Positions 3,061 through 51,092 of a stretch of DNA of 64,000 bases are shown piece by piece; the first letter of the stretch is position 1, and each line of letters begins with the position of its first letter. Source of the stretch: Psammoneis japonica (Eukaryota); NCBI GenBank assembly GCA_008632985.1, contig QPGO01000040.1, positions 129,719 through 193,718 on the forward strand, given 5' to 3'. Position numbers and translations under genes: made by a program. The notes beneath the pieces are model-generated. The model ran no database searches. It was not told where the DNA came from and saw only the letters and a program-made list of their open reading frames with translations.

Positions 3061-3900
3061 TTGAGGAAAGAGAAAGAGTTTGGTCAATCACAAAAGAGAA
3101 AAAAACAATCTCACATGTGCTGATCAAGCGACACATGTCAAGATGGAACTCTGGCTCCCATGTCTCATCAAGGGCACAAGACTGTGCAAAAGGAAAAGAG
3201 CAAGCTGCACAAACAGTTTGGACAGAACATTTTCAATGTGATGAAAATGGACAGTGACAATGATGGGCATTGTCTGAAAACATTGTGCGTTTTTCAACAA
3301 ATTCACAATCAAATCATTGAGAGTCAAAGCTGTGGAGAGCTCTTGAATCGGAAGATGATCATGAGCAGGGGGTGCAGCAGGAGAAGTTGGTGCAAGACAT
3401 TGTCTTGGCTGCAAAGGGTGCCATGGTTTTGTTTGCCTGAACAGCTTGGATGAACTTGCTTTTCTCCACCATCAGGCCACAACTTTGATTGCGAGGTTCT
3501 GTTTTTTTAGAGGACCTGGCAAATCTGCTCCCAACCCCAACCCTGACCTGACCCTTGGAAAAGGAAAGAGTTTTGTTTGTCTTGTCAAAAGAGGAAAACA
3601 ATCTCACATGTGCCGGTGACCAAGTGGGGCATTAAACTGGAGCTCCGATTCCTGTGTCTCATCAAGGGTGTGACCGCACAAAAGGAAAAGAGCAAGCCAG
3701 ACACAAACAGTTTGGATTGAACATTTTCAATGTGACAAGAATGGTCAGTGACCAAGATGAGCATCATCAGAAAATGTTGAGTGAGTGTCTTTCAACAAAC
3801 TCACAATCAAATCATTGTTGGAGATCAAAGCTGCCGAGAGGCTCTTTGTCAGAGGATCACGAGCAGGAAGAGAAGCAGGAGGAGTTGGCACAAGATGGTG
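3061..3900 (+). repeat. Diverged direct duplication (~340 bp: 3061-3400 and 3555-3900)
   Basis: Shared blocks acaatctcacatgtgc, gtctcatcaaggg, caaaaggaaaagagcaagc, cacaaacagtttgga, aacattttcaatgtga and tcacaatcaaatcattg. Confidence 0.85.
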
Positions 3901-9140: not shown

Positions 9141-9439
9141 ACTCTTGTTTCTTGTTGCGCTATTTTGTAACAAAGTTTCTTGTTGTGTGCAGAAAAACGG
9201 TTGGGAGTTGTAAGATCAAGATGATGGAATGAATGCTGTCGGTTTGTCACGACTTCATGGTCAGTGAGTCAAACAGACATTGTTATTGATCTCGTCCTTA
9301 AATGCTAATTGATACGGGCTTTCAATCTACTTAGGGTGTGTGTTTATTTAAGAGATCAGAGAATGACTTAACGAAAGATTGATTCTTATACAAAGCTGAT
9401 GATGTCATTGAATTTCATAAGATTGGGTTGCGACAAAAC

Positions 9440-11985
9440 AGCGATTGCAACTCCCAACTGGGAGGTCTGTAAGTGGTGCAGAAGAGAGAAATTAAGGGAA
9501 GACGATTGCAGTTGTCCATTCCAATTCTTTACTCTTGCATCCATTTATCACCCATTGTGTGGCCATCCACTGTCCACCATCCATTGTCTGTGGTCATCCT
9601 CCGCAACTCACAACCCCACATGTCACCGTCCATTGCCCCCGCCCCCGCCTTCAGCCACACACAGTCCATCATCAACTGTCCATTTCAAGCTTCAACAGCC
9701 TGAACATGTGAATGGAGTTTCTCATTTGCATTGAGCAAGATCGACTTGAGAAATTCCAACAGCACCGCCATGCCCCTCTCCTTCACAACCTTCGTGAACT
9801 CCGCTGCGTCTTGCTCCAACCTTGTGATGGACTGCCTTTGTGCACTTTCTAACAATTTTGTTAAAGACCTTTTCCTTCTGCATCTTGTGGTTTGTCTCAT
9901 CCTGTTCTGATCACAATGTTTCCCTCAGATTGCCTTGTCCTTCTCTGGCACGGTTGTGCCGATGATCATGGACACTCCAGCTCCTCCTGTTTGTGTTTTC
10001 CTGCTGCCTCAGAGGCATCAGCACCTGCACTTCTGGCCCAAACACTCTTCCAACACACTTGCTTGTTTTCCTCATGGTTTCCATGTTCTCATTGGCTTGT
10101 CAACCCAACTGGGAAATTGTGTCATTTTCACCCACTCCTTCAAATCTTTTGTGCTTCCACACCAAGTTGTGCCCTCCTTGCCCAAGTCAATGTCTCTCCC
10201 GGTCTGTCACAACTTCACCACCACACCCTTTTCAGCAGGCACCCTTGCAGCTTCCTCTCAGCAAAGCCCTCAAGAGACTGTTTTTTTGCCAGCCGCTCTT
10301 TCACCGGGGAGCAACAACTTCTCTTCCAGTCAATCCTTCAACTGGAGCAACAAAATCTGCAACAATTCTTGTCAGCTCAGCAAGCTTGAATGCCACAATT
10401 GCTCACACCAACCGATTCTTGGGTTCCTCTCCTCCTGAATCCCCAGCCTTCTCTTGGGTTCTTGTGACATCCCAGCCTTTTGCTTTTTAGCCTCTGCACC
10501 AGAACAGCTCAACAACATGGCAGCAGCATTGGCAACAGTGTTCCAAGAGATGCGTCATTGTGGTCCAAACATGTGGTGAGTTTTGGAGTTGGCAAGACTG
10601 ATGCAGTTTGGTCAGCAAGCTGCAAAGCTCCAACACAGGCTAAAAAGTGAGCACAAAACCACGTTCATGGAGAGCTTGTGAGTGCAAGTTCGCAACGTTG
10701 CCAACAGCAGTGACCAATGCTCTTTCACTGCAACATTGACTGTCTTCTCTCTGTCTTCCCAACAAAGATGCCTTGAACCTTGGCATTGCAACACCCAGGC
10801 TTTGTGTTCCAACAACTCTCATGTCTTTGCGTGTGTTTGTTTGCAGAGTTTTTGGCAATTGCAGTGTGGACCGCTTGATGACTTTTTGCTTGCATGCTTT
10901 GTCATTGTTTTGCAGCCCTTGGAGGACACCACAAGTCTGCTTTCTCCTCTCACAAGCTCTTCAGATGACTTGGTGGTGTCTTGATGTTGTTGTTGCATCT
11001 GCACTTGCTTGTGTTTTGATCATTTGTATTTTCATCTTCAGCCTTGCTCTTGTTGAAAAAAGATTTCTTCTGCTGCTGGCACAGCAAGAACAACACACAC
11101 ACACACACACACACACATTGTCATCACAAAAAAGCGTGCTGGGAGCTTGAGCTTGGCAATTGACCCCCTTGAAACTGAGCCCCCCCCCTTGATTGAGCAG
11201 CCCACCAAAAGGTGACTCTGCCTTCAATGAAAGGACAATTGATGAAAAGCACAAGCAAAACCAAAGTTGAGGTGCACCTGTTTCTGCCCCCCACAAAGTT
11301 TCTTGGCACACTCTCTTTTTTGAGAAGGAGACCCAGCACCCTGTTTTTGCACAGCACCAGCACAGCTGACCACATGTGTGTGAGCCATTTGATGCATTCA
11401 ATGTGTCATCTGAGAAAAACATGAGTTTCCTTTCATCCTCCAAGATCAACCTTTGATGATTTCCAACTTGGCTGCTTGTTTGGGCAAAAATCTTTTGGAG
11501 AGAAGCACAAGAGCTGCTGTTTCATCTGCGAAGCAACACAAAGAGGCCCTGCTGCTGGTGTGGAGCGGGGGAAGTCTCTCATCTCGGGGGGAAAACACAC
11601 ACATGTCAAGCCAGGAACTGGCAGGGCACACCAGTGTGAGTGGATGGGCAGCTGGAGGAAGGAGAGGATGCCATGAGGGAGAGTTGGCCAGAAAATCTCT
11701 CTGCAGCAAGAGCCAGTTTGGGGCACTGTCTCGACACACACAGCAAGAACAGCAGCAGCTCACACAAAATCTGCTGCAATGGTGTGGGGTGGTCCATTTG
11801 CCCATGTTTTGCCATGCTGGAAAACATCACCTAAATGACAAGAGATTGTAGAAAAAAAAAAGCCCCAAGAGCATTGCTTTTGTGTCATGTTGTGTGACCA
11901 CCTCACACACAACCACTGTCCAACCAAACATCCATCAAGAACCCACACACCCCACAGGAAGTGTGAGAAAGACAAACAGACACTT
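9440..11985. other. TpA/CpG-depleted degenerate block, probable repeat or TE remnant
   Basis: About ten TA in 2.5 kb by eye. No recognisable protein. Contains a (CA)n run at ~11093-11116. Confidence 0.7.
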
Positions 11986-30865: not shown

Positions 30866-32697
30866 CTATTTTAAACTTTTACGTAACCTGTCAAGAAGGC
30901 CCTGCGTTTCATTGACAATGGCAACAATCGTGTCTTGATCCTCGGCCGTCATTTGCTTCGACCGAACTTTCTTTTCGATTTGACTTGTAAGTGCATTCAA
31001 TTGTTTTTTGGCCATTTCAAAGCTCTTTAACGTCAGAGGCTGTTTCGTGACGCACGTTTTTGCCAGTCGAGCCTTTCGAACCACGTTCCAGGGTTTTTTC
31101 AAAGTGGGTATTTCGCGAATGGCAAAAATGATTCTGTTCAGACGCTTTCGGACCTTATTCACAGTTTTCAACTGGTCGGGGATCACCTTGGCTTTGGTAA
31201 TTGTCACAGTTGCGCACTCTCGGACCGTTGGGCGGTGGTCAAACTTGACAGTAATGCATGCCATCACGGTAGTAGGTAGCCGGGAAATGTCACTGCATGT
31301 AAGGCGCGGGCGCAAGACTTTCTTCTTGTTGAATCTGCACATTTCATTGTTGATCGTCCACAGATATCTCCCCGCAGCAGTGCTGTTTACTTCCTTTAGA
31401 TAAATCGGCTCGTTGAGCTTCCCACTGTAAGGCCCACCCACATTGACGGTCGCTTCTGGCGACGGAAGACACTTGAGCGTCGGGTAGCTTCCCGGTTCCA
31501 ACGTCCAAATATCAGCGTCCCAACTCATCATGGGCTCGTTGCTGTGATTCTGGAAATGACGTGGTTCCGCCACCATGCTTATATTAGTTGGTCCTACCTC
31601 AACTACGAAGGGGCTATCATACATCCTCGGGGTCACCAAGTGCAGGACTCGCCACGGCGTAGTTGTTAAGGAAGGAATAGCTGCGTTCCGGTCTCAAGCT
31701 ACCAATCAAGCCACCCAAGTATGGCCCAGCGAATGTTCCAGCCGCAAAGGTATTCTCAACGGTACTGACATGACAAGCACAGCTTGTTCCCAATAATCCG
31801 ACGAGCCCTCCCACCTCGTCAAAATCAGATGAATCTTTTCTAATTGGCTTCCACTTTACCTCGCTCTGCGTAGCTAGACTATTCCGAATCTGTCCTTTTC
31901 TTCCGACAAGACCGCCGAGCGGGCCATCACATTCCGCAGAGCCGCCAGCTGCACAACTATTCTCAACCGTCGCGAAGCCCGCGCCAAGCAAGCCTCCACA
32001 AGAACGGTCGACCGTGACTTCTACACGACTCGCGCTGTACCTGTTGACGTGCCCTTCGGTCAAAAATCCAATTAAACCGCCGACATACAAGGCACCTGCT
32101 GCGGTTCCGTCCATGGCATGGCAGCATGAGCAGTGAACGCCCTCTACAAATCCAATGAGTGCACCAACACTGCTGTCGGCACTGCCAACAGATGCATTTC
32201 TGACGACAACATTTTCAACGACCACCCAAGTGTCTCGCCTGAAAAAGAATCTCGCAAAACCCCCTCCCATCCTCAGCCACAGAAAAGTCATCAAGCACAA
32301 GATCCTTGACCGTGGCAGTCCAAAACTTGCTGCTCTGAATGCGATGAACGAGTCCTGCGAATCTAAAGCTGTCTTCAATGTGCAAATCTCGAGCAGCATG
32401 CCCGCTCCCATTGAAAGATCCTGCAAATGGACTTTTCAAGCCTGTTGGCACAAAGTTGTCATGTGGATCAGCCTGAAGATCCTTTGTCAATGTGCAATGC
32501 AAGTCAATTCCGTTTGCTTCGATGCTCTTCAGATCTTGGCAAGTGGAAATTTCGCGCGGGTGGTTTTCCATTTTTCCGCAACCGTGCACGAATTCTGAGG
32601 TTGCTGGTTGTGTCAAAGCATTCACAAACAGAATGCCAACAATTGTGTTGCCAGCGCAGCTCTTGGGCTTCTTCATCCTTGCAATGTTTGGTTTCAT
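30866..32697 (-). pseudogene. GLUG-motif repeat secreted protein with C-terminal PKD-like domain; frameshifted, 5' half TA-mutated
   Basis: ISTCQDLKSI..LTKDL..F.P.G...PFAGSFNGSGH..DL, repeated VGGLVG/LGGLIG, and VNVGGPYSG..YLW. Split over three frames. Confidence 0.65.
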
Positions 32698-32749
32698 GTG
32701 TGCGTGTCTCTCTCTCTTTCTCCATTTCTTCTCCATTTCTTCTCTCTCT

Positions 32750-34850
32750 TGTCATTTTTTTTGTGTGAATTTGTGCGTGAGAACGCAGTCACATGATCAA
32801 CAGTTTCGGTTGAAATCCACAGCTCTCTTCAGCAGCAGTTTTCATGACAGTCTTGCAAGTTTGCTGAGTTGAGGCTGCATTTCACACCAAGTGAAAACAA
32901 GGCAAACACACTGGTGACAAAGAACGAGAAGCCGGTTGGAACTCACGACAAGGAGACAGTGTCAAAATTGCCATGGACACAAGAAAACAATGAAGTGCCA
33001 CATCGCACCCAGTTGTGTCAATTGTGAATGCAGACAGTCAGCGGGTTTCAAAAATGACACTCACCAGGTCTTTTCAGCGTGTGACAGCACGACACATGAT
33101 GTGATGGATGGCACTCTGATTCTTGTTTCATCATTTTTCTGGGTTCAATCATGTTGATTGCACTGCTTCTGCTGCACAGAGAATGTTGTGCAGTTGGTTG
33201 ATGAGCGTTTGTGAGCTCATTGCCTGCAAGACATTTTTGCTCAATGCAGCAAATCACATGGAAGAAATCGGGGCAACAAAGAGACACTTGACAAATGAAA
33301 CATTTGTTGGGGCAATGCTGGCAAAGCAGGTGCAGTGCAAGCACTGCTGTGCTGGTGGTGTGCAAAACCCACAGCAATTTGAAACTGCTGGGAAGAGCAA
33401 TGCCGTCATGTGCTGCACAAAAGAAGTGTGCAGTGCAAGACACTGCATCCCCATTCCACTGTGGCAGAGCTGTTTGCAGGGCAACAATTAAAAAAAAGAT
33501 GGTGGTGGCAATGGGGTGAAGCATCTCTTGGAGAGGCAAAGTGACCATTGGGTCCTTTGCCTGTCTTGCACCTGAACCCGCCACTGGTGGAGATGGCTTT
33601 TTTTCTCAGAGGATCATCAAAAATGAATGTTTGAAATTTTGGAAGGTGGGCCAGGGCATCAAATGATGCTCTGCATTCCAAGAGCACTCTTTTTGCATGC
33701 TTGGGTGGCACAAGCTTGGAAATTTGGGTGCTGCCAACCAATGCGGGCATGCTGCAGAGTGAGGGTTTTGTGTTCTCTCTTGACAGACACCTCATTGTCC
33801 TTCAAATGTGTTCTTGGGCTGAGTGGCACTTTGCCCTCTCTCTTGGAGCACAGCTCTTGAGGGCAGATGTCAGGCTTGCTGCTCTTGAAATTGCCCCAAA
33901 AAGCAGATCATCATGACCCACTGTCACATGGCTGATGCTGTCATTTTCTTGCCATCCTTTTGCCAAGTGAGTGCAGGCAGTGCGGCAGCCACATTGAAGG
34001 CCAACTCGCCGCACACTGTCACACTGCAGTGAGTTTGGGTGTGCATGAGTTTGGGCACATGTGCGCACTCACCCATCTTGACAACCTCAATCTGCGGTGC
34101 CCCAGCTGGTTTCCAGCCAACCAGCCTCACTCACCATGCAGCAGCTGATGAAAGATCTCTGAGCTCATGTCTTTGCTCCATGTTTGAAGAACAGAAACAT
34201 GAGGGCTGACATGCGCCGATTTGAGCAAAGTTGTTGCATGTCTTTTTCAAGCTGTGCAGAACTGAGCAAGCTCCTTGACAAAAAGAGGCAATGTGATGTT
34301 GCTGCCTCTGTGGGAAGCGACACTGAGAAGGGACAGTTGTTGGACATCGTGCTTCTCAAAGAGTGATGGAGTGTGCTTGTCTCCTTGGCTTGAGATGGGG
34401 ATTCAACAACAAGGCTGAAACAAGGAAGTTTGGCAGTTGAGTGAACACCACATGCTGGCACTTGTCAAACAGCAACCTCCAAGCCAACCAGTCAATCCCG
34501 AATCCCACAAACTGGAGCCTGAGTGAAAAGCTTGGGCATGCCTGAGTGTCCCTTCAACCCAGAACCATGGAAAGGCCAGAGTGTCAAGCACTGAGCACTT
34601 GCTGCTTGACAAAGTGACATCAGAAGAACTTTGCAGCAGTTGTGCTGACACAACCAGCCCCCCAACCCACCCACCCACACCCACACACACACAAGGCAAA
34701 TGCAGTCCGTCACATTGCAACAGCTCAAACAAGTGAAAAGCTCTGCTCAAGACCCAAAGCCGGTGGATCGAGATTTCTAGTTTTTGGAAACCGGCACTTT
34801 CCATGGACCACTTGCCTCAGTGGCAGCACAAAAATGACTCTCAACTAGAC
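32750..34850. mobile_element. TA-depleted degenerate block, possibly a PIF/Harbinger-like remnant
   Basis: Near-total TA loss. Weak fragments AGFKN..QVFSAC....MDGTLI and RRFEQSCCMSFSSCAELSKLL. The family call is tentative. Confidence 0.35.
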
Positions 34851-42045: not shown

Positions 42046-42572
42046 GGTTGCACACTGGTTAATGCGGCAACGCACTCGATGCTTGGTGCTTGGTGCAATG
42101 AGAGGATTTATTTGTTGCGCTCGCTCGAAAACGTGACAAGAGAGGCACACACCGGGCATAAACATCAAAGTGTTTCGTCTGAAATGTCGTTTCTGGAGTC
42201 ATAAATTTAGATATTGTGATTAGTACTTGGCTAGGTAGAAACGACAAAGATTTACATGATCGTCAACAATTACAATGACTCTTCAAAAACCGTGTTTGCA
42301 TGACCTGTAATGACTTCTCCTCGTACCCAAGTTTAGATGGACGGACTGACTCGAACCAACCCCGCTCGATGACTATGACCCCTCGCTTGATCCATGTCGG
42401 AAGTAGGGGACTTCCGACTCAAGATGACCCAGTCTAGTCTTCCGACTGTGACCGGTCAAACTTCGGTCTTCGCTTCTCTCACTTTTCCAGCTTTGTTGGA
42501 ACAGGAACCCTGATCAACGTGACTGGATCACACAAGCTCGGAAAAGCATTGTTCTTTTTAGTCTCTCTCATC

Positions 42573-45040
42573 ATGTCGGATTTCTTCATCTCGGGTGTCT
42601 CGGATGATGCGTTCGTTGATTTGGCTCATCAGCTGGAGTCTGATGTTGTCTCACCACTCTCGTCGAGCTCTCCGGTGGCTCCCTCTCCTCAGGCTCGCCC
42701 TTCTGGGGCTGCACGACAGGGGGGGTCACGGGGGCTTAAATCCCCAAGGCGCAAGTGAGGACATTTTGGGGGGTTGCAGTCATCCCCAATCGGACATTGA
42801 CAGGGCGGAGTCACCCAGGGGAAGTCATTTCCCACCCTCCAGGAACTCACGTTTTGGAAGGAGACGCATCCAGCCCGTTTCAGAGGGAAGCTCGCTTGAC
42901 TCGGGTGGGTTTCTTTGGGCGGGATTCAGTGGGTGATGTCGGGGGCATGCTCGAGGTGGAGGAGGAAGGCACGTCTTCTTCGTCCTCGCATGTGTCTCGT
43001 TGTCGAATCACCTGGCTGGAGACAACTGGAGCACCTCGGTGCTTGGGGGTCAAGGGCGGAGGAGCCACCTTCTGCCTCAAGAAGGCAAGCGAGTGCAATG
43101 TGAAGAACAAGGGCGGAAGGACAAACATCCCGGCAGTGGGGATGACAGCGATTCTCAAGTCCCCGGATGCGGGGTTTTGTCAACCCACCCCAGACGGAGG
43201 GAGCATGTCTGGCGAGGTGTCAGTTAAGTGGGAATCGGAGTCAGGTGCCCTGGCTGGGTGGCGGCAAAAGTTTTTGTTTCTGGGCAACGGTGAGCCCTTT
43301 TTTACCAAGGACGAGGTGGAACCTGCTCCAAAGGAGTGTGAAAAGGCGGCCGATTTCAAGACACCGGCTCGCAAGCAGTGGCCAGAAACCACCTTGCCTC
43401 ACGAAGATGCCGTCCTGGAGAGATTCATCCCGCATGAAAAACAAATGCTCTCCACACCGGCACAATTCCTGGTGGCAAACAAGAGTCCATCCGCTTTGGC
43501 TCGGGTGGTGCAATCAACCGAGGATGGATTGAGGCAAGCCGGGGAGGCACCAGCCGAACCAGGTGACAAAGCTGGGAAGTGTTTCCATGCTGCGGAGTCC
43601 ATGGTTGACGTTCTCAGCTGAAAACTGGATCAACTCAACGCGTCTCTCGGCACTCCGACCCAGGGATTTGACGAGGCTCTCCTTGCCCCCATGCTTTGGG
43701 GCACCCTGGCGAACGTTGCATCTCAGGAAACAGGAACCCAATCCACGGACCTGCTGGACCACATCACACAAGTGGAAACGGGGTGGAGAAACCAATCCAA
43801 CAATCTCGTGAGAATGTTCAACGAGAGGTTTCAAGGGATGCAAGATTGGATGGGATCCACGGCCAGTTGCATGGATCTGGAAAACCTGAAAAGAAACATG
43901 CTTTGGGTTTGCACCCAGTTGACCTCAAAGGTCAGGTCGTTAGAGTCTCAGGGAGCTGTGGGGTTCGCACCACCAGGTGTGCCATGTGACCAAGGTTCCG
44001 TGGATGCACGCCTCACTCGACTGGATCGGGCGGCAAGAGTGAGCCACGCACAAAATCGGACAAATCAGCTGTCAAGTTCTTGGGGTTGGTGCATCGTCCT
44101 GCAAGGAGTGCCAGGCTTGGATGACACAACATTTCCCTTCGAGGGCGCATGGATGTTTAACCGACATTGTCTTGCTCTTGGATCGGATCAAAGGAATTGA
44201 GCCAATGGCCCTGCATCACTTTTTATCTCAGTGGGCCAAGCGTGTGAGCATGAACATTGCGACCAAGGAAGATGCGCGAACTTTGGCAGGCTTCCAATGC
44301 CGCATGCCTCGGATTTTTGACTCGGGATCTGCAAAGTCGGCTCAGACCTTGGGGTTGTGCATCCCTCCCACTTGGACAGGGTCGAGACTTACGAACATTG
44401 GTCGTCTGGGAACGTGGGGACGAAGCACTTCATTGAGGGGAAGATCGCCTCGATGGAAAATGATGTCATGGAGGACATCAACCAATGCATTAGACCGGGC
44501 ATGTTTGAGAGCCAGGCAGTGTGGGATGCTTTGTCTAAATTGGTGGCTTTCCTGCTGGCACTGACTCAGTTTGTCGACTCAACTTGTGCTTCCCTCGCTG
44601 ATCTGAGCAAGTTCTTGAAGAAGCAAGCATGGTCCTTGACCTCCAAATTGATGCATCGCATCTTTGAGGACATTCACAAGGCGCGTTCGGGGGCATTTGC
44701 CTCCATTTCAGGCACGGACCCAGACGCAGTGTGCAGCAAAATTTTGTGGGCGGTGTTTCGAACCCAGGATGTTGTGGCCGAGTGCACGTCCATGGGGTTC
44801 GCCGATCACCCCTCGATGGCATTGGAATGTGTCAAGTTTCTCGTGACTTGTTCCGCTTTCAAAGTGGTTGCGGACTTGCAATCCATGGTTCTGACGTTGA
44901 CGGAGAAAGCCAAAAACGCTGGCTCTGAGGCAAAATCAGCCCAGGCTCATGGGGATGCGGCTCACGTGGAACTGGGAAAATTGCGGACGGAGGTGAAGGA
45001 CTTGACTCGCCGTCTGAAAGCTCTTGAGAACAAGAAGTGA
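42573..45040 (+). pseudogene. Retroelement ORF1 (gag-like), fragmented
   Basis: Cys-containing N-terminal region, then KKQAWSLT..RIFEDI..ARSG..ILWAVFRTQDV..FADHPS..ECVKFL and a C-terminal coiled coil. Confidence 0.55.
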
Positions 45041-45049
45041 AGCTCGTGG

Positions 45050-48000
45050 GGAATGGAGAAACTGCGGGAGGGTCCGGTCTCGATTGACAGGCCCACCAAC
45101 CCAAGGCATGTCATGCAGGGCCGCAAAGCCTTCTCATTTCAAGGAGCTTGTTTGGTTCTTGCTTCCGGTCCCCCAATTTGGCTTTCATCTTGTGCCACTG
45201 TTCTGACATCACTTGCACTTCCCACTGGAGTCCCCTGTCAGTGGAGATGTTCCAAAGCCAGTTGGGTGCCTCCTTGGCATGGGTCTCTTGGTCTGGTGTG
45301 GGACACCTCGCTGCCCAGGTTAATCTTGTGTTTGTGTCGGGCCCACCCTCATTCCTCGAATCTGCTGTGCATGTCATCTGCTCTGCACCCTTGATTGTGA
45401 TCCCCGTGGGAAAAATTTCGAGACGCAGCCTCCTTGGACTGCGCCAGTTCCAGCGTCGGGATGTTGCACATGCAGTGGCAGGTGGCGTTGCTTCCTTCCG
45501 CACAACACTGTTCTGGGGCAAGGGGTGCCCGCTCCGGTCTTTGACGGAGGCCTGCTGTCGGTCCATCATCGGGCATGTCATTGATTGCAAGCTTCCCGGG
45601 CCGCCATCGCCCCAACACCCCCATGATGATTTTTGCACGGAGGCTGACCATCTTGATCCTCAGTTCTTGAACCGACCGGTCGTGTGCCCATCTCATTGGT
45701 CTGTGACAGGTTGGGTCTCCCGCGCTCTCTCTGTGGATGAAACATTGGCAGCCTGGGATTTCCTTTTGCATTTCTGCATGCCTCAGGTGCACCGGGCCTT
45801 CGAGCGGGGTTTTTCGCTTGTCCCGTTGAACCTCCTCACCCTGTTTGTGGAAGCGTTCATTGACAATGCCCCCCAGGACTCGTCGCAGCCTGGGCATGTG
45901 GTTGGCGGGGACACTGTGCCTGAAGTTCCGGTTCATGGGGCTGGAACTTGGCCACCTGCCCTTCGGCGGCATTTGCCACACACTTGGATCAACATGTCCC
46001 TCACAACTGCGAAGGCCGCTGAGGGCGATGCAGCGGCGCCTTCATTTCGTTTGTGGGACAAGCTGATTGCTCTGCTTTTCCCGGTCTTTGGAAAGGTTTT
46101 ACCTGCCCTTCGGGACTTGACCCATTGATGGTGGTGGAGGCGGACTCTTCGGTCCTTTCTGTCACACCTGCACTGGGTGCATGGCCCGACATGGGGCGCC
46201 ATGTTGGCCACACAACGTCGGCGTTTTGGGGATGCTACAGGGCGTCTTCAGGGGGGGGGTTGTCGCCACCCTCCACTCCCATCTTTGCCACTTGACGCAC
46301 ACCTTGGGGCAGACGTGTTGACACAAGTGTTGGCCAGCACATGGCAGAACTGGGGCCGAGGTTTGTCCCTTCTATTTTGGTGATGGCCCACTCCAGAGCA
46401 GCGGGTTTGCGCTCGGGATGGGATCCAGATTTTTGTTGACGGTCCCCTCCCTCGCAATCGTCGCCGCCAGCGAATACGGTGTTCAGAACATGAGATCCTC
46501 AGGATGGCGGACAAGACACAGAAAGTCCGAGACCAAGGATGCATCTGTCATGGCAGGGTGATCAGCTTAACAGACTATTTCTGGGTCCCAAAGACCGTCC
46601 GAGTGGAGCCCCAGAATGGACGGTTGGTGGAAATCGTCGAGGATGTGTGGATGGTTTACAATGGGACTTCTTCCAGATTAAATGATGCCTTGTGGGCACC
46701 CTCCTTTTTCTTGCCCACCCGTTTCGGTTCTGGGCTGCATGACCCATTCTACGTTCTCGGTGGACCTTGATCTTGGCAATGTGTTCTTGAATTTTTTCAT
46801 GGATCCCAACATCCGGCCCTGTGCGGGATTGACTTAACCCCGCTCAAGCCGTGTCTCCCGTCGCCGGAGCCGATCTCGGGGGGTCCACTCTGGTTCGAAC
46901 GATGGAACCGCTTGTTTGTGGGGATGCATCCCAGCCCTTGCTTGGCGGTTTGGGCATTCCATTGGGCCGATGAGATTGCCCGAGGCGATCCACAATGATC
47001 TTTGACATTGTGGGGTGTGACAAGCTTGTCCTAAACTTGCCGAGTGACCCAAATTTCCAGATGGAAAACCCATTTGTCATGAAGTGCAATTCACGTTGGA
47101 AGGAAATTGCTGGGGACATCAAAACATTTGCAGACGACTTGCGAGGAATGGGGGCGAGCGAGGAATCCGCATGGCAAGTGGCTCACCAAATGGCCTCACG
47201 GTTGCAGCATCTTGGTCTGCAGAAAGCGGCCCGGAAGGCACGCCCCCCTTCTCAAGTTGAACCAGAGCTTGGGCAGGCGCCATCTTCAGAGTTATTGACA
47301 GGGACGTCACTCAGTCTGTGGCTCAGGCTAAATGGGATAAAGCCAAGGTCATCATTGCCGATTTGCTTGGTTTCCATGCAAATTGGCCTGATGGCTTTCT
47401 CCCCAGTTTTGACTTCAAGGATCTAGAGCGGAAACAGGGTTTTCTGGCACACCTTGCGATGACTCACTCTTTCCCAACACCATTCTTGAAAGGCATCCAC
47501 TTGACCCTTGACTCATGGTGGCCAAATCGAAAAGAGGACGGTTGGGCGATGACAGGAAAGGAGTTCGTGAATTGGATTCATTGTCTCGCTGAGAAGCGGG
47601 GCCTAGACCCATCAGAGGTTGCAGAGGGGCTAAGGGATCAGCCGCCACCTCTGCAGGTCACAGCAGTCCCTCATCTGTTCATGGACTTGACAGCTGTGTC
47701 CCGCATTGTGGAGTCTCCTGCCCCCACTGTGGTGATCATCAGGTTGTCAAAAATCGTCTCAGTCCTCTACGGTTTTGGTGATGCATCCGGAAAAGGGCTC
47801 GGCACGTCCCTGGAAGCATCGGACGGAACAATTGTCTTTCGGATCAGTGTGTGGGGCGATGACGAACTGGGAAACTCTTCGAATTGGAAGGAATTGTCCA
47901 ATGCGGTCGATGCCATCCAGGAACTTGGAGAGGAGGGCAAATTGACTGGCATGTGCTTGTTCTTTTTTACAGACAACTCGGTTGCTGAATTGGCTTGGCA

Positions 48001-48679
48001 CAAGGGCACCTCTTCCAGCCCCCTCCTGCTTGAGCAAGTCATTCGGTTAAAATCTTTAGAGGCCAAGCATGGGATTGGGCTGTGTCTCACACACGTCTCG
48101 GGAGGTCGGATGACAGCTCAGGGTACGGACGGAGTCTCTAGGGGAGTCTTGTCTGAAGGGGTTATGAACGGAGCCAAGATGTCATCATTCGTGCCCCTTC
48201 ATCTTGGAGCCACTGCTCGGTCTCCCACTCTTTTTGCGTGGGTTCAATCTTGGGCTGGTGCCCCGCCTCCGGAGCTGCTGACCCCCTTGGAGTGGTGTCA
48301 GAAGGGACATGACATTGCGGGGGGGAGTTGCCCAGACCACGAGGCAATCGAAATGCCCCAGTTCAAGTCAGGCACTTGGGTTTGGGCCCCGCCTCCAGCT
48401 GCGGCAAGGGCGGCTCTGGAAGAGCTCCACATCACTGGGATCAAACGCCAGACATCATTTCACACATTCATCTGCCCACGCTTGATGACGCCGGAGTGGC
48501 AGAAGCAGTTGTACAAGGCGGCAGATCTTGTGTTCACCATTCCGGCTGGAGCAAGACCTTTCTGGCCAGGTGACATGTTTGAGCCATTGCCAATCGGCCT
48601 TCTTTTTCCGTTCATTTCCTGCAGCCCTTGGCAGCTTCGGGGAACCACAAAAATGCATGCTGTGGACCGGTCCTTGTGA
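45050..48679 (+). pseudogene. Retroelement RT + RNase H (DIRS-like), fragmented
   Basis: FWVPK..MVYNGTSSRLNDALWAP.F, TFADDLR (YxDD-like), LQHLGLQKAARK, YGFGDASG, SSNWKEL, FTDN, HVSG.RM.AQGTDGVSRG, WAPPPAAA. Confidence 0.8.
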
Positions 48680-50191
48680 CGAGTGTGGCCGGACACTGCG
48701 GTGGACGAAAGGCACATTCTGCACAAATTTTGTGCACAATGCAGGAATCTGGCCGGCATGTCGGAGAAAGCATTGTGTCCAGGGTGCCACACTTTGAGAG
48801 AAAGCATGACATTCCATCTGGGAGGGACCCTGTCGGACGACCCTCAAAACAACGATGCTCAAACTCTCGGGGCTGACCGCCCTTGGTTGGACAATGATGT
48901 GTGGTGTCGGAAGCCACAGGACAAAAACAAATTCATGCGGGCTCACGCAGGAGACCATCTTGTGGTGGCGTTTGCTGAGTGCGACTCCTGTGTCTTTCAC
49001 AAGCTGCACCAGAGGGAACCCGTGCCATCATCACCTAGAGACAAGGTTGCCCCAGCTTGCATCCGACGGGTGATCCTGGATGCCTTTTGGAGCAGGGAAT
49101 CTACAATGGTTGAGGCGAGTGCGGCAAGAGTTGGCCGGGGCCTAACCTCATCCAAGCGTTTGGGCCTGATGGGCCCTCACCTGGAACCAGGTCTGCTCCC
49201 GCCCATGATCACTGTGGGTGCGAGGTCACGATGCAGATCGTCTTGGCATCGACGGCTGCAGGGAAACACTCGCAGTCGTGCACTCAGTTTGATGCGATGG
49301 GAAATTGCGCACTGCGCGCTCCAATCAGGTGCGTGCTTCTGCCCAGGCTAATTCATGTGCTTCAGCGTTGGGCGACTTGGAAGGAAAACAGCATCTCAGA
49401 TGTGTGAGGACCACGTGCCTCGCTGTGGTTCCAACATTTTATGACCGGGTGCAAGAGATGGATGGGCCAAGACTGGAGGCCCGACAGGGCAATGTCAGTG
49501 GACGTCATGCAACACCTCTTGCCTCGGGTCGAAGAGAAGGCTCTTTGAGCCCCAGGAGAGGCAGACAGATTCATGTGCCTTCCTGCAGATTGCACTTTGC
49601 GGCGAGCTACGTCTTGTCCCTGCGGGGCCCAGAAGGTTTGCTCATGGACTTGGGTGCAATGGCAAAGCATCCACCAAGACACACTGAGCATGTTGCAGTC
49701 CCCCTTTTGGGGCGAGTGAAGGGAGAACATGGGGAGTGGCAGCACCTCCTCCCAAGTGTCAATGTGACCAGCTCAGGGACCAACCTTCAATTTTGGGTGG
49801 AGACAGCAGTTTCGTTACACTGGGTCATCGGCGAACGCGCGGACCAGCCATGTCGGATGTGGACGGTCAAGTCTTGTCTACGAAAAAGCTTGGCACTTTC
49901 CTGCATGAAGTTCTGGGAGACATCTGTGATGATCACCCAAGCTTGTTTGCAGCAGACATCACCTCTCTTGCTGACACACAGGACAAATGTGATGTGAGCC
50001 GGTCATTCAGGAGGGGATCTGACTCTTGTGCCATTGCTCAAAAGGTGTCGGAAGATGACATTGATGTCGTCAACCATTGGAAAAAGAAGGAGAGGTTGGG
50101 GGCGGCTCGACCCACCCACAAAATGTGGCAACACCATGCCGACATCACCCTTCTTTTGCCCTCTTTCCTGCATTGCACCAAGGCCATGTGA
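48640..50191 (+). pseudogene. Retroelement tyrosine recombinase, fragmented
   Basis: IRRVILDAFWSRE, LSLRGPEGL, PLLGRVKGE, SRSFRRGS, and IDVVNHW..MWQHHA, where the probable catalytic Tyr reads His. Confidence 0.7.
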
Positions 50192-51092
50192 CTCGGGATG
50201 ATCGCAAGCCCTTGGTGACATCAGCCCCCCGGAGAGCAGCCCTCTATCTTCCTGCTCTCTGGATCGCCATTTTTGGTGGCCACTGCCCAGGATTCTCATC
50301 GGGGGGGGGGGGGGGGGGGGGCAGAGCTCGACCCATCTCAGCCAGCCTCGGGAGTCAATGAGACAAGGTCAAAGACAACTGAGTGGCACAAGACGTTCGA
50401 CGGCTTCAGTTTTCGTGCAGGAAAACTTGGTCTGGCGCATCTTCGTTCGAGGTGGCCATTTGCTCTCTAGTCTGCACCCAACGTCGCGAAATGCCAAAGG
50501 GGACAACACTGGAGTTTGGTCCTCGAAAATGCCCGAGGTGCCAGCACTGCATCGGTTTTTCGGAAGAGCCCCTGTTCTGCTGCAGGACCCTGCGGAGGGT
50601 TTGGATTTTCCCGTCCCCCTTGTGCGGAGCAGAGCTCATGCCGAAAGCTTTACTCCACGAGTCTCCCAAGTGTCCTGATGAATTGTTACTTCTTAGTGGT
50701 TCTTGACTAGGATCATCCGAGAGCTAGTCCGAAGCGGCGGTTCGCAGAGTCTATACTCGGATCCTTCCTGCTGTTATAAATAAATAAAGCACCAGTCATT
50801 CTGAGATACAATTTTGGTCATTTTTTGGCCAGTTCCTTCATCGTCGAATCGAAAGAGACGGAGAGCGCACGACCACAGACTTCCCACAGACAGGCGAGCA
50901 ACAATTGGTTCCTTGCTTCGTTCTCGGTACAGTAGTCTACGTAGTAGACAATGTTGCTCAAAACGTTTTCATTTCTAGCTACCTTTCGCACGCTGTACCT
51001 AGAAATCTAGTTGACTAAGAGCTAGAGCGGTCTACAGGAGAGCAAGGTCAATTCAAAGTTAAAATTCATTCCCGTTAGATTTTCTTACTCAT

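Follow-up and report, generated by a model that had tools for sequence, protein, structure and literature searches.

How a retrotransposon can lose almost all of its TpA (TA) dinucleotides while many of its CpG (CG) dinucleotides remain is the question raised by a 64,000-nucleotide stretch of the genome of the diatom Psammoneis japonica (positions 129,719 to 193,718 of the forward strand of contig QPGO01000040.1, assembly GCA_008632985.1; hereafter the window). The element, a copy of an Ngaro-type retrotransposon with split direct repeats and a TA-erased interior (42317..50765, + strand), holds 45 TA and 381 CG in the 8081 bp between 42570 and 50650, that is, observed/expected (O/E) ratios of 0.11 for TA and 0.62 for CG, while the remainder of the window has 0.62 and 0.92. 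Within the same 8081 bp, the ratio for TG/CA is elevated (1.39). These counts agree with a preliminary description of this DNA, which saw few TA and many CG in the element. Its statement that CG persists is right insofar as the CG ratio exceeds that of four further TA-poor blocks of the window (TA 0.01-0.05, CG 0.17-0.27), but CG is not intact, since 125 CG have disappeared that the nearest sibling copy retains (220 are common to both). Comparison among copies makes it very likely, for direction, products, post-insertion independence, rates, context and edge effect taken jointly, that TA was changed to TG or CA on both strands, independently in each copy and after its insertion.

A search of the same genome returned 31 matches to the element, 11 of them long siblings at 80-89%. 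We compared these and nine more distant copies; the main alignment comprises 12 copies (the window copy and the 11 long siblings, family 1), and two sequences (L046 and L047) were excluded from all mutation analyses. Among the alignment columns, 137 contain TA, TG and CA without CG and 282 contain CG, TG and CA without TA, whereas all four dinucleotides meet in only 7 and, in a young set of five copies that are 91-96% alike, in none. Had TA arisen from CG by two mutations, the two dinucleotides would be expected mostly in the same columns; we therefore infer that TA was the ancestral state at the erased sites. Changes at TA columns are nearly all transitions (other states, 4/755), with 629 TG and 575 CA products in family 1 and 325 TG and 338 CA in a second family, restricted here to a four-copy subset since the six-copy set mixes subfamilies only 70% alike, which inflates pair concordance. 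The protein level points the same way: opposite the tyrosines of an intact metagenome relative (L065), the 12 copies have His at 133, Cys at 118 and Tyr at 39 of 544 positions, against Tyr at 188 of 461 in 12 metagenome relatives (p 2e-38). Among the best 80 of 412 metagenome relatives, a selection that favours intact copies, not one is TA-poor (TA O/E median 0.65, minimum 0.46; window copy 0.15).

The timing of the loss can be read from its products. Two young copies that have both lost a given TA show the same product in 53% of cases (879 of 1656), sister pairs as little as 0.5% apart being no exception, and in family 2 in 433 of 868; CG sites lost by both members of a sister pair, by contrast, have the same product in 32/33, 32/34, 34/37 and 30/36 cases. 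Since TA products agree at chance and CG losses nearly always, the transposing parent elements most probably had their TA intact, the loss following the insertion of each copy. Out of 255 TA sites, 43-88 survive in a young copy, compared with 491-518 of the 568-577 CG sites, so that TA loss outpaces CpG decay 11-16-fold in the youngest copies, 7-11-fold if subclades are ignored, and 5.5-7.7-fold in family 2. Other private changes in the young copies amount to 0.16-0.44%; TA-site loss (1.1-1.8 per site against 0.002-0.004) exceeds them several hundred-fold, a figure that compares copies and is not a per-generation rate. In the window copy, 37 TA remain out of 353 inferred sites and 320 CG out of 675, a rate ratio of 3 that is depressed by saturation and subfamily differences. 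TA loss amounts to 65-90% across the family and to about nine in ten in the window copy. The losses of TA and CG are therefore far from equal, and the earlier proposal that TA loss is distinct from, and faster than, CpG decay stands on the column split, the rates and a differing edge profile (see below). The persistence of CG, which sets the element apart from the other blocks, is best read as a sign of the element's youth rather than of a separate process: CG decay is ongoing, TA saturating first and CG following later.

The flanking bases strongly influence which TA are lost. The 45 survivors are distributed (R, purine; Y, pyrimidine) as 22 YTAR, 19 YTAY, 3 RTAY (46475, 48124 and 48512, precisely the three named in the preliminary description as rare survivors) and 1 RTAR, a bias that holds against a composition null (p 7e-7), host TA contexts (p 2e-10) and the contexts of the 353 inferred former TA sites (p 5e-4). 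TA retention in the young five copies rises from 0.10 in RTAY to 0.22 in RTAR, 0.30 in YTAY and 0.46 in YTAR, and family 2 has the same order (0.02, 0.18, 0.22 and 0.36). At asymmetric sites, the A before a pyrimidine changes more often (YTAY, 220 TG to 123 CA; RTAR, 54 to 63; p 7e-4; p 0.08 for the same test in family 2). Relative rates estimated from 239 sites with a competing-risk model are, by the +1 base, 1 for A, 1.9 for G, 3.1 for C and 3.4 for T (likelihood-ratio statistic 146 on 3 degrees of freedom), with further effects at -2 (A 1, others ~0.5), -3 (T 0.4) and +2 (A 1, others ~2.2). Loss is slowest within TTTA/TAAA runs and fastest with a pyrimidine after the A and with A preceding TA. 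Outside TA, A to G singletons also favour a 3′ pyrimidine (RAY 22/727 against RAR 7/1001, p 2e-4), a leak of ~1% of the TA rate that corresponds to a ~100-fold preference for TA over RAY. The suggested preference for TAY/RTA contexts is thus confirmed, mainly through the base 3′ of A. As judged from sequence, mutation strikes the A of TAY or, equivalently, the T of RTA, A to G and T to C being indistinguishable at this level.

The split repeats, in which the same sequence occurs in a terminal and an internal position, provide a built-in control for the effect of location. Sixteen copies provided 30 pairs of repeats, in which TA is retained in the terminal repeat only at 110 sites and in the inner repeat only at 40 (CG, 76:62). 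Within 200 bp of the end, these outer-only to inner-only counts are 76:3 for TA where the flank has normal TA but 15:16 next to flanks that have undergone TA erasure themselves (p 3e-8 for the contrast; the two flank classes are separated at a threshold of our choice, 12 TA per 500 bp); for CG they are 21:6 and 13:21. In the window copy, the left edge (42317..42440) keeps all five of its TA sites, at 7, 17, 57, 87 and 118 bp, and the right edge (50650..50765) keeps all aligned TA sites up to 80 bp (11-78 bp), with partial protection to ~115 bp; the same right-hand sites are mostly lost in siblings where repeat B is internal. TA is normal in the flanks from the first 250 bp, the host DNA not being invaded. 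Since protection varies with position and neighbour, it is not determined by sequence, and terminal TA retention is positional. The preliminary description had both termini retaining TA: this does not apply to the ends of the span 42570-50650, whose first TA is at 42737 and last at 50468, but it is correct for the true ends at 42317 and 50765.

The loss was also thought to act in tracts, with clusters of survivors at ~46200-46850 and ~47300-48170. Neither of these clusters, of 9 and 12 TA, reaches significance by itself (scan p 0.39 and 0.10-0.11), but the merged, unstranded 2-kb zone 46200..48170 holds 23 of the 45 survivors (p ~0.005, the best of four window sizes, scans of 650, 870 and 1000 bp being negative). 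A 1-kb-bin test on the window copy gives p 0.38, and among the 12 copies only L040 (p 0.002) and L039 (p 0.045) are regionally overdispersed at p<0.05. Neighbouring mutated sites show no strand coordination within 25, 50 or 100 bp (product shared in 50-53%, permutation p 0.10-0.45), adjacent mutated sites of family 2 share their product in 48%, copy-specific clustering of adjacent survivors is not significant under two nulls (p 0.16 and 0.09), and there is no strand coupling between lost CG and nearby lost TA (p 0.27). Action in tracts thus finds no support beyond this weak kilobase-scale patchiness; a distributive, repeated action with mild patchiness would fit the pattern.

Contigs from sequencing run X1 bear on possible artefacts. 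They cross both junctions of the element, one without any difference over 1387 bp and the other with a single difference over 1308 bp (mostly flank), and match its interior at ~99%, being equally TA-poor; X1 may be the source sample, so that this agreement argues against a platform artefact only. Of 92 differences, the 40 examined comprise 26 of CG type, 6 of TA type (three each way), 2 belonging to one TG/CA site and 6 others; from this subset, per-site losses of TA (3/45) and CG (11/381) do not differ significantly (p 0.18). We read X1 as probably representing this insertion in a different allele or strain, in which both clocks run and TA is nearly exhausted. Almost none of the stretch is present in runs X2 and X3.

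Two known hypermutation systems and one decay process resemble what is seen here. Repeat-induced point mutation (RIP) changes C to T at CpA, yielding TpA; it is triggered by homology, acts premeiotically and needs RID. The likeness to RIP of ascomycetes (RID/DNMT4) (PMC9998398) is that transitions confined to repeats and specific for a dinucleotide inactivate elements once these have inserted, the same three dinucleotides being involved, and it suggests a RIP-like genome defence that might work on the opposite base pair; the differences are that TA is consumed instead of made, that the target is A:T, and that no strand-coordinated runs were found, although saturation may hide them. The closest parallel is the chlorarachniophyte Bigelowiella natans, for which the portion of a recent preprint consulted describes TpA-specific hypermutation of integrated nucleocytoplasmic large DNA virus and virophage DNA, arising de novo at ~1000 times background in mutation-accumulation lines, with hints of transposons as further targets and a deaminase proposed as the enzyme (bioRxiv 10.64898/2026.01.13.699255). 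Both cases share A:T to G:C transitions restricted to TpA, with TpG and CpA as products, and confinement to foreign, repeated or silent nuclear regions, genes being spared. They differ in host (a stramenopile here), in target (a retrotransposon family, near-saturated with 65-90% lost) and in evidence (measured de novo there, derived from copies here); the flank rule, CpG rate and edges are absent there, and the words "diatom", "CpG", "flanking" and "context" appear nowhere in the preprint. The decay of methyl-CpG in transposons of diatoms, associated with DNMT5 in the section of PMC9998398 consulted, has the same targets and the same TG/CA products and provides the slower clock in this element, but it uses another substrate, is ~10-fold slower and shows a weaker edge effect. 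Our literature search, largely outside subscription journals, found no report of TpA hypermutation in diatoms. Our verdict is that the feature is real, that it belongs to a barely known kind of DNA mutation and that the diatom case is new.

We consider it probable that a mutator confined to silenced domains and specific for TpA acts on chromosomal DNA. A new copy would insert and be silenced, after which a host activity limited to the silenced repeat domain would change A:T to G:C at TpA of either strand, site by site over many cell divisions, halting ~80-130 bp short of the border with normal DNA; the slower CpG decay would run in parallel as a separate clock, and therefore young copies would be TA-poor but CG-rich and old blocks would lack both. 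The outcome would be dead elements deprived of Tyr and other codons, with silent chromatin presumably serving as the address and defence as the role. As to chemistry, we lean slightly towards a deaminase that is tethered to the chromatin of repeats and converts A to hypoxanthine, and engineered TadA and its parent indeed favour TA/TAC (PMC8065034, in the part consulted). More tentatively, and falling just short of what we would call probable, diatoms of this lineage may possess a natural, chromatin-tethered DNA adenine-editing defence that reads double-stranded TpA (optimum ~A-A-T-A*-Y, poor in A/T tracts), spares about one nucleosome length at borders and erases the Tyr codons of every silenced repeat.

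Several observations weigh against this proposal. In the consulted part of PMC8065034, the adenine base editor ABE7.10 favours TA only ~3-4-fold over GA and is little affected by the 3′ base; the ~100-fold strictness seen here exceeds this and fits a double-strand reader of a palindrome, which leaves a double-strand writer of a mutagenic mark as the main rival. The search for enzymes in the genome revealed no distinctive candidate: the nine PF00383 matches and the two genes with an editase domain (PF02137) look like housekeeping genes, and an ADAT2-like gene (L056) is present but universal. These small deaminases, the editase-domain genes and the DNMT4/RID-like genes (see below) are leads at most. 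One of the two editase-domain genes, which is ADAR-like (L191, G000:C79:344.2-345.9 kb), is common among diatoms, with no double-stranded RNA-binding domain listed for its homologues; TA erasure is absent from all 80 relatives while this gene is widespread, which counts against it. The edge protection of CG next to normal flanks also means that the TA and CG processes are not fully independent in space, and family 1 shows a sense-strand excess of 1.23 (p 0.012), which was not replicated in family 2 (0.99, p 0.88).

The most serious competitor, which we nevertheless regard as unlikely, is that a base-flipping enzyme of methyltransferase type (e.g., one of the expanded DNMT4/RID-like family), or some other writer, modifies one of the two bases of the TpA palindrome in repeats, T or A, the resulting mispairing producing T to C changes. 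The strict palindromic specificity and the flanks acting partly on both strands at once (the -2/-3 and +1/+2 effects) suit such an enzyme, and so do the 27 PF00145 matches in the genome, among them three DNMT1/4-like genes that are intact and single-copy, one of which has a chromodomain-like motif, noticed by eye, upstream. The kinship of diatom DNMT4, a protein of no known function, with fungal RID (PMC9998398) suits it as well. C5-methyltransferases, however, are not known to act on T or A, and no DNMT4 appears in the non-diatom transcriptomes of the set in PMC9998398, yet B. natans bears the signature. Tet_JBP and MT-A70 had no match in the genome, but positive controls were equally silent. 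Error-prone patch repair of the Pol eta type (WA motif, where W is A or T), set off by T:G mismatches from methyl-CpG deamination, would account for both processes fading at the edges and for the slightly lower TA retention within 30 bp of a lost CG (206/872 against 1274/4668, p 0.024, the site pairs not being independent). The WA spectrum of Pol eta nevertheless hits AA nearly as often as TA, with many transversions and in clusters, and the copies do not match this: AA is barely touched (AAA 1/232, AAG 0/240), transversions are at ~1% or less, TA sites are uncoordinated and uncoupled by strand to lost CG, and per site TA loss runs ~10-fold above its supposed trigger, all of which makes this explanation improbable.

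Episodic, processive bursts sweeping along tracts and leaving clusters of survivors are nearly as improbable. The 2-kb scan, the two overdispersed copies and the uneven hits among B. natans lines (in the consulted part of bioRxiv 10.64898/2026.01.13.699255) speak for them, and superimposed bursts could wipe out coordination in near-saturated copies, but 10 of 12 copies lack overdispersion and adjacent products agree no better than reported above. We give very little credence to the idea that an ADAR-like enzyme edits the RNA or cDNA of the element as it retrotransposes: although an ADAR-like editase-domain gene exists and one family has a slight sense-strand excess, the two products are equally frequent, split-repeat copies differ according to their chromosomal neighbours, the allelic or strain insertion differs at TA in both directions, and duplicated methyltransferase genes (see below) are hit too. 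The flank-dependent edge effect contradicts it outright. Equally far-fetched is the absence of any mutator, be it intrinsic TA avoidance, RIP-like CA to TA polarity or an assembly artefact; probable homopolymer errors within the element lend it a little substance, but relatives with normal TA, the polarity of the columns (7 against 137), the conversion of conserved Tyr to His or Cys, and, as regards a platform artefact only, the near-identity of X1 contradict it.

Repeat-directed mutation, as known so far, almost always acts on cytosine, and a silenced-domain TpA mutator would, if real, constitute a second, GC-raising defence that, together with B. natans, represents an A:T counterpart of RIP either shared across SAR (stramenopiles, alveolates and Rhizaria) or evolved twice. 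It would point to a natural DNA adenine-editing enzyme of interest for base editing. The quantitative flank fingerprint, the two-clock dating of diatom repeats and the built-in control of the split repeats, which indicate a chromosomal domain with an 80-130 bp margin as the target, offer handles for its study. TA erasure would also skew repeat dating, annotation (Tyr to His/Cys) and GC content in such genomes.

The architecture of the element supports its assignment. Ngaro retrotransposons are organized as A1-ORFs-B1A2B2, where ORF stands for open reading frame (PMC8547959, in the part consulted), and the siblings have the layout A1-ORFs-B1-A2-B2, with both repeats in 9 of the 11 (L032 has B only and L031 neither repeat in convincing form). 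Like Ngaro elements, they combine split direct repeats with an apparent gene order of gag-like, reverse transcriptase/RNase H-like and tyrosine recombinase-like; the window copy differs in lacking the A2-B2 tail and its putative recombinase in having no Pfam match. Repeat A1 (42317..42560, +), which reappears as the internal A2 in siblings, is followed by the 3′ part of ORF1 (44324..45016, +), gag-like by position and 28% identical to ORF1 of L065 (E 2e-28). ORF2 (45310..48805, +), reverse transcriptase/RNase H-like, is fragmented by stops and frameshifts. Its top named homologues are diatom proteins. On homologues, RVT_1 scores E 7e-4 to 0.13, below the Pfam cut-off, and there are what we take to be DD and GDASG/TDNS motifs. 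ORF3 (48627..50188, +), also fragmented, is tyrosine recombinase-like by position and by an RRG...Y motif seen by eye; it matches L065 (E 5e-84), a Tyr-Tyr of which is His-His in the window copy, and Pfam found no match for it in either. All three window ORFs align to L065, and none of nine frames of the window element matched Pfam. Repeat B (50323..50765, +), duplicated as B1/B2 in siblings, closes the copy. Sibling L036 carries a third A repeat directly after B2 (9367-9501), a tandem or circle-derived insertion. X1 has one extra base at 46823, 47261, 49204, 49298, 49410, 49580, 49824 and 50614, several of them near apparent frameshifts, and some breaks of the window copy may be assembly (homopolymer) errors. 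X1 depth reaches ~1400 at 42468-42834, compared with 57 in the flanks, and the A repeat region therefore has far more copies than the full element.

Elsewhere in the genome, the multicopy DNMT1/4-like genes L179, L180, L181, L185 and L188 (G000 C301, C297 and C28) lie in TA-erased DNA (TA O/E 0.03-0.11) and are 91-96% alike, with differences mainly of CG and TG/CA type; TA is normal in their single-copy paralogues L175, L176 and L182, a contrast indicating that duplicated or captured host-type genes are hit too. Within the window, the TA- and CG-erased block at 32200-34700 had no second copy in the genome search, so that erasure may not need a present-day partner, or copies of this block may have diverged too far. 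The element is flanked by tandem paralogues of a peptidase M11-like gene family (35000-62600, 60-75% alike) with normal TA. A long degenerate inverted repeat at 1-2030 (arms 1-184 and 1847-2030 plus inner pairs, 74-85%) adjoins the first TA-erased block, and a 494-bp tandem duplication (3144-3817) lies within a TA-erased block (block B1).

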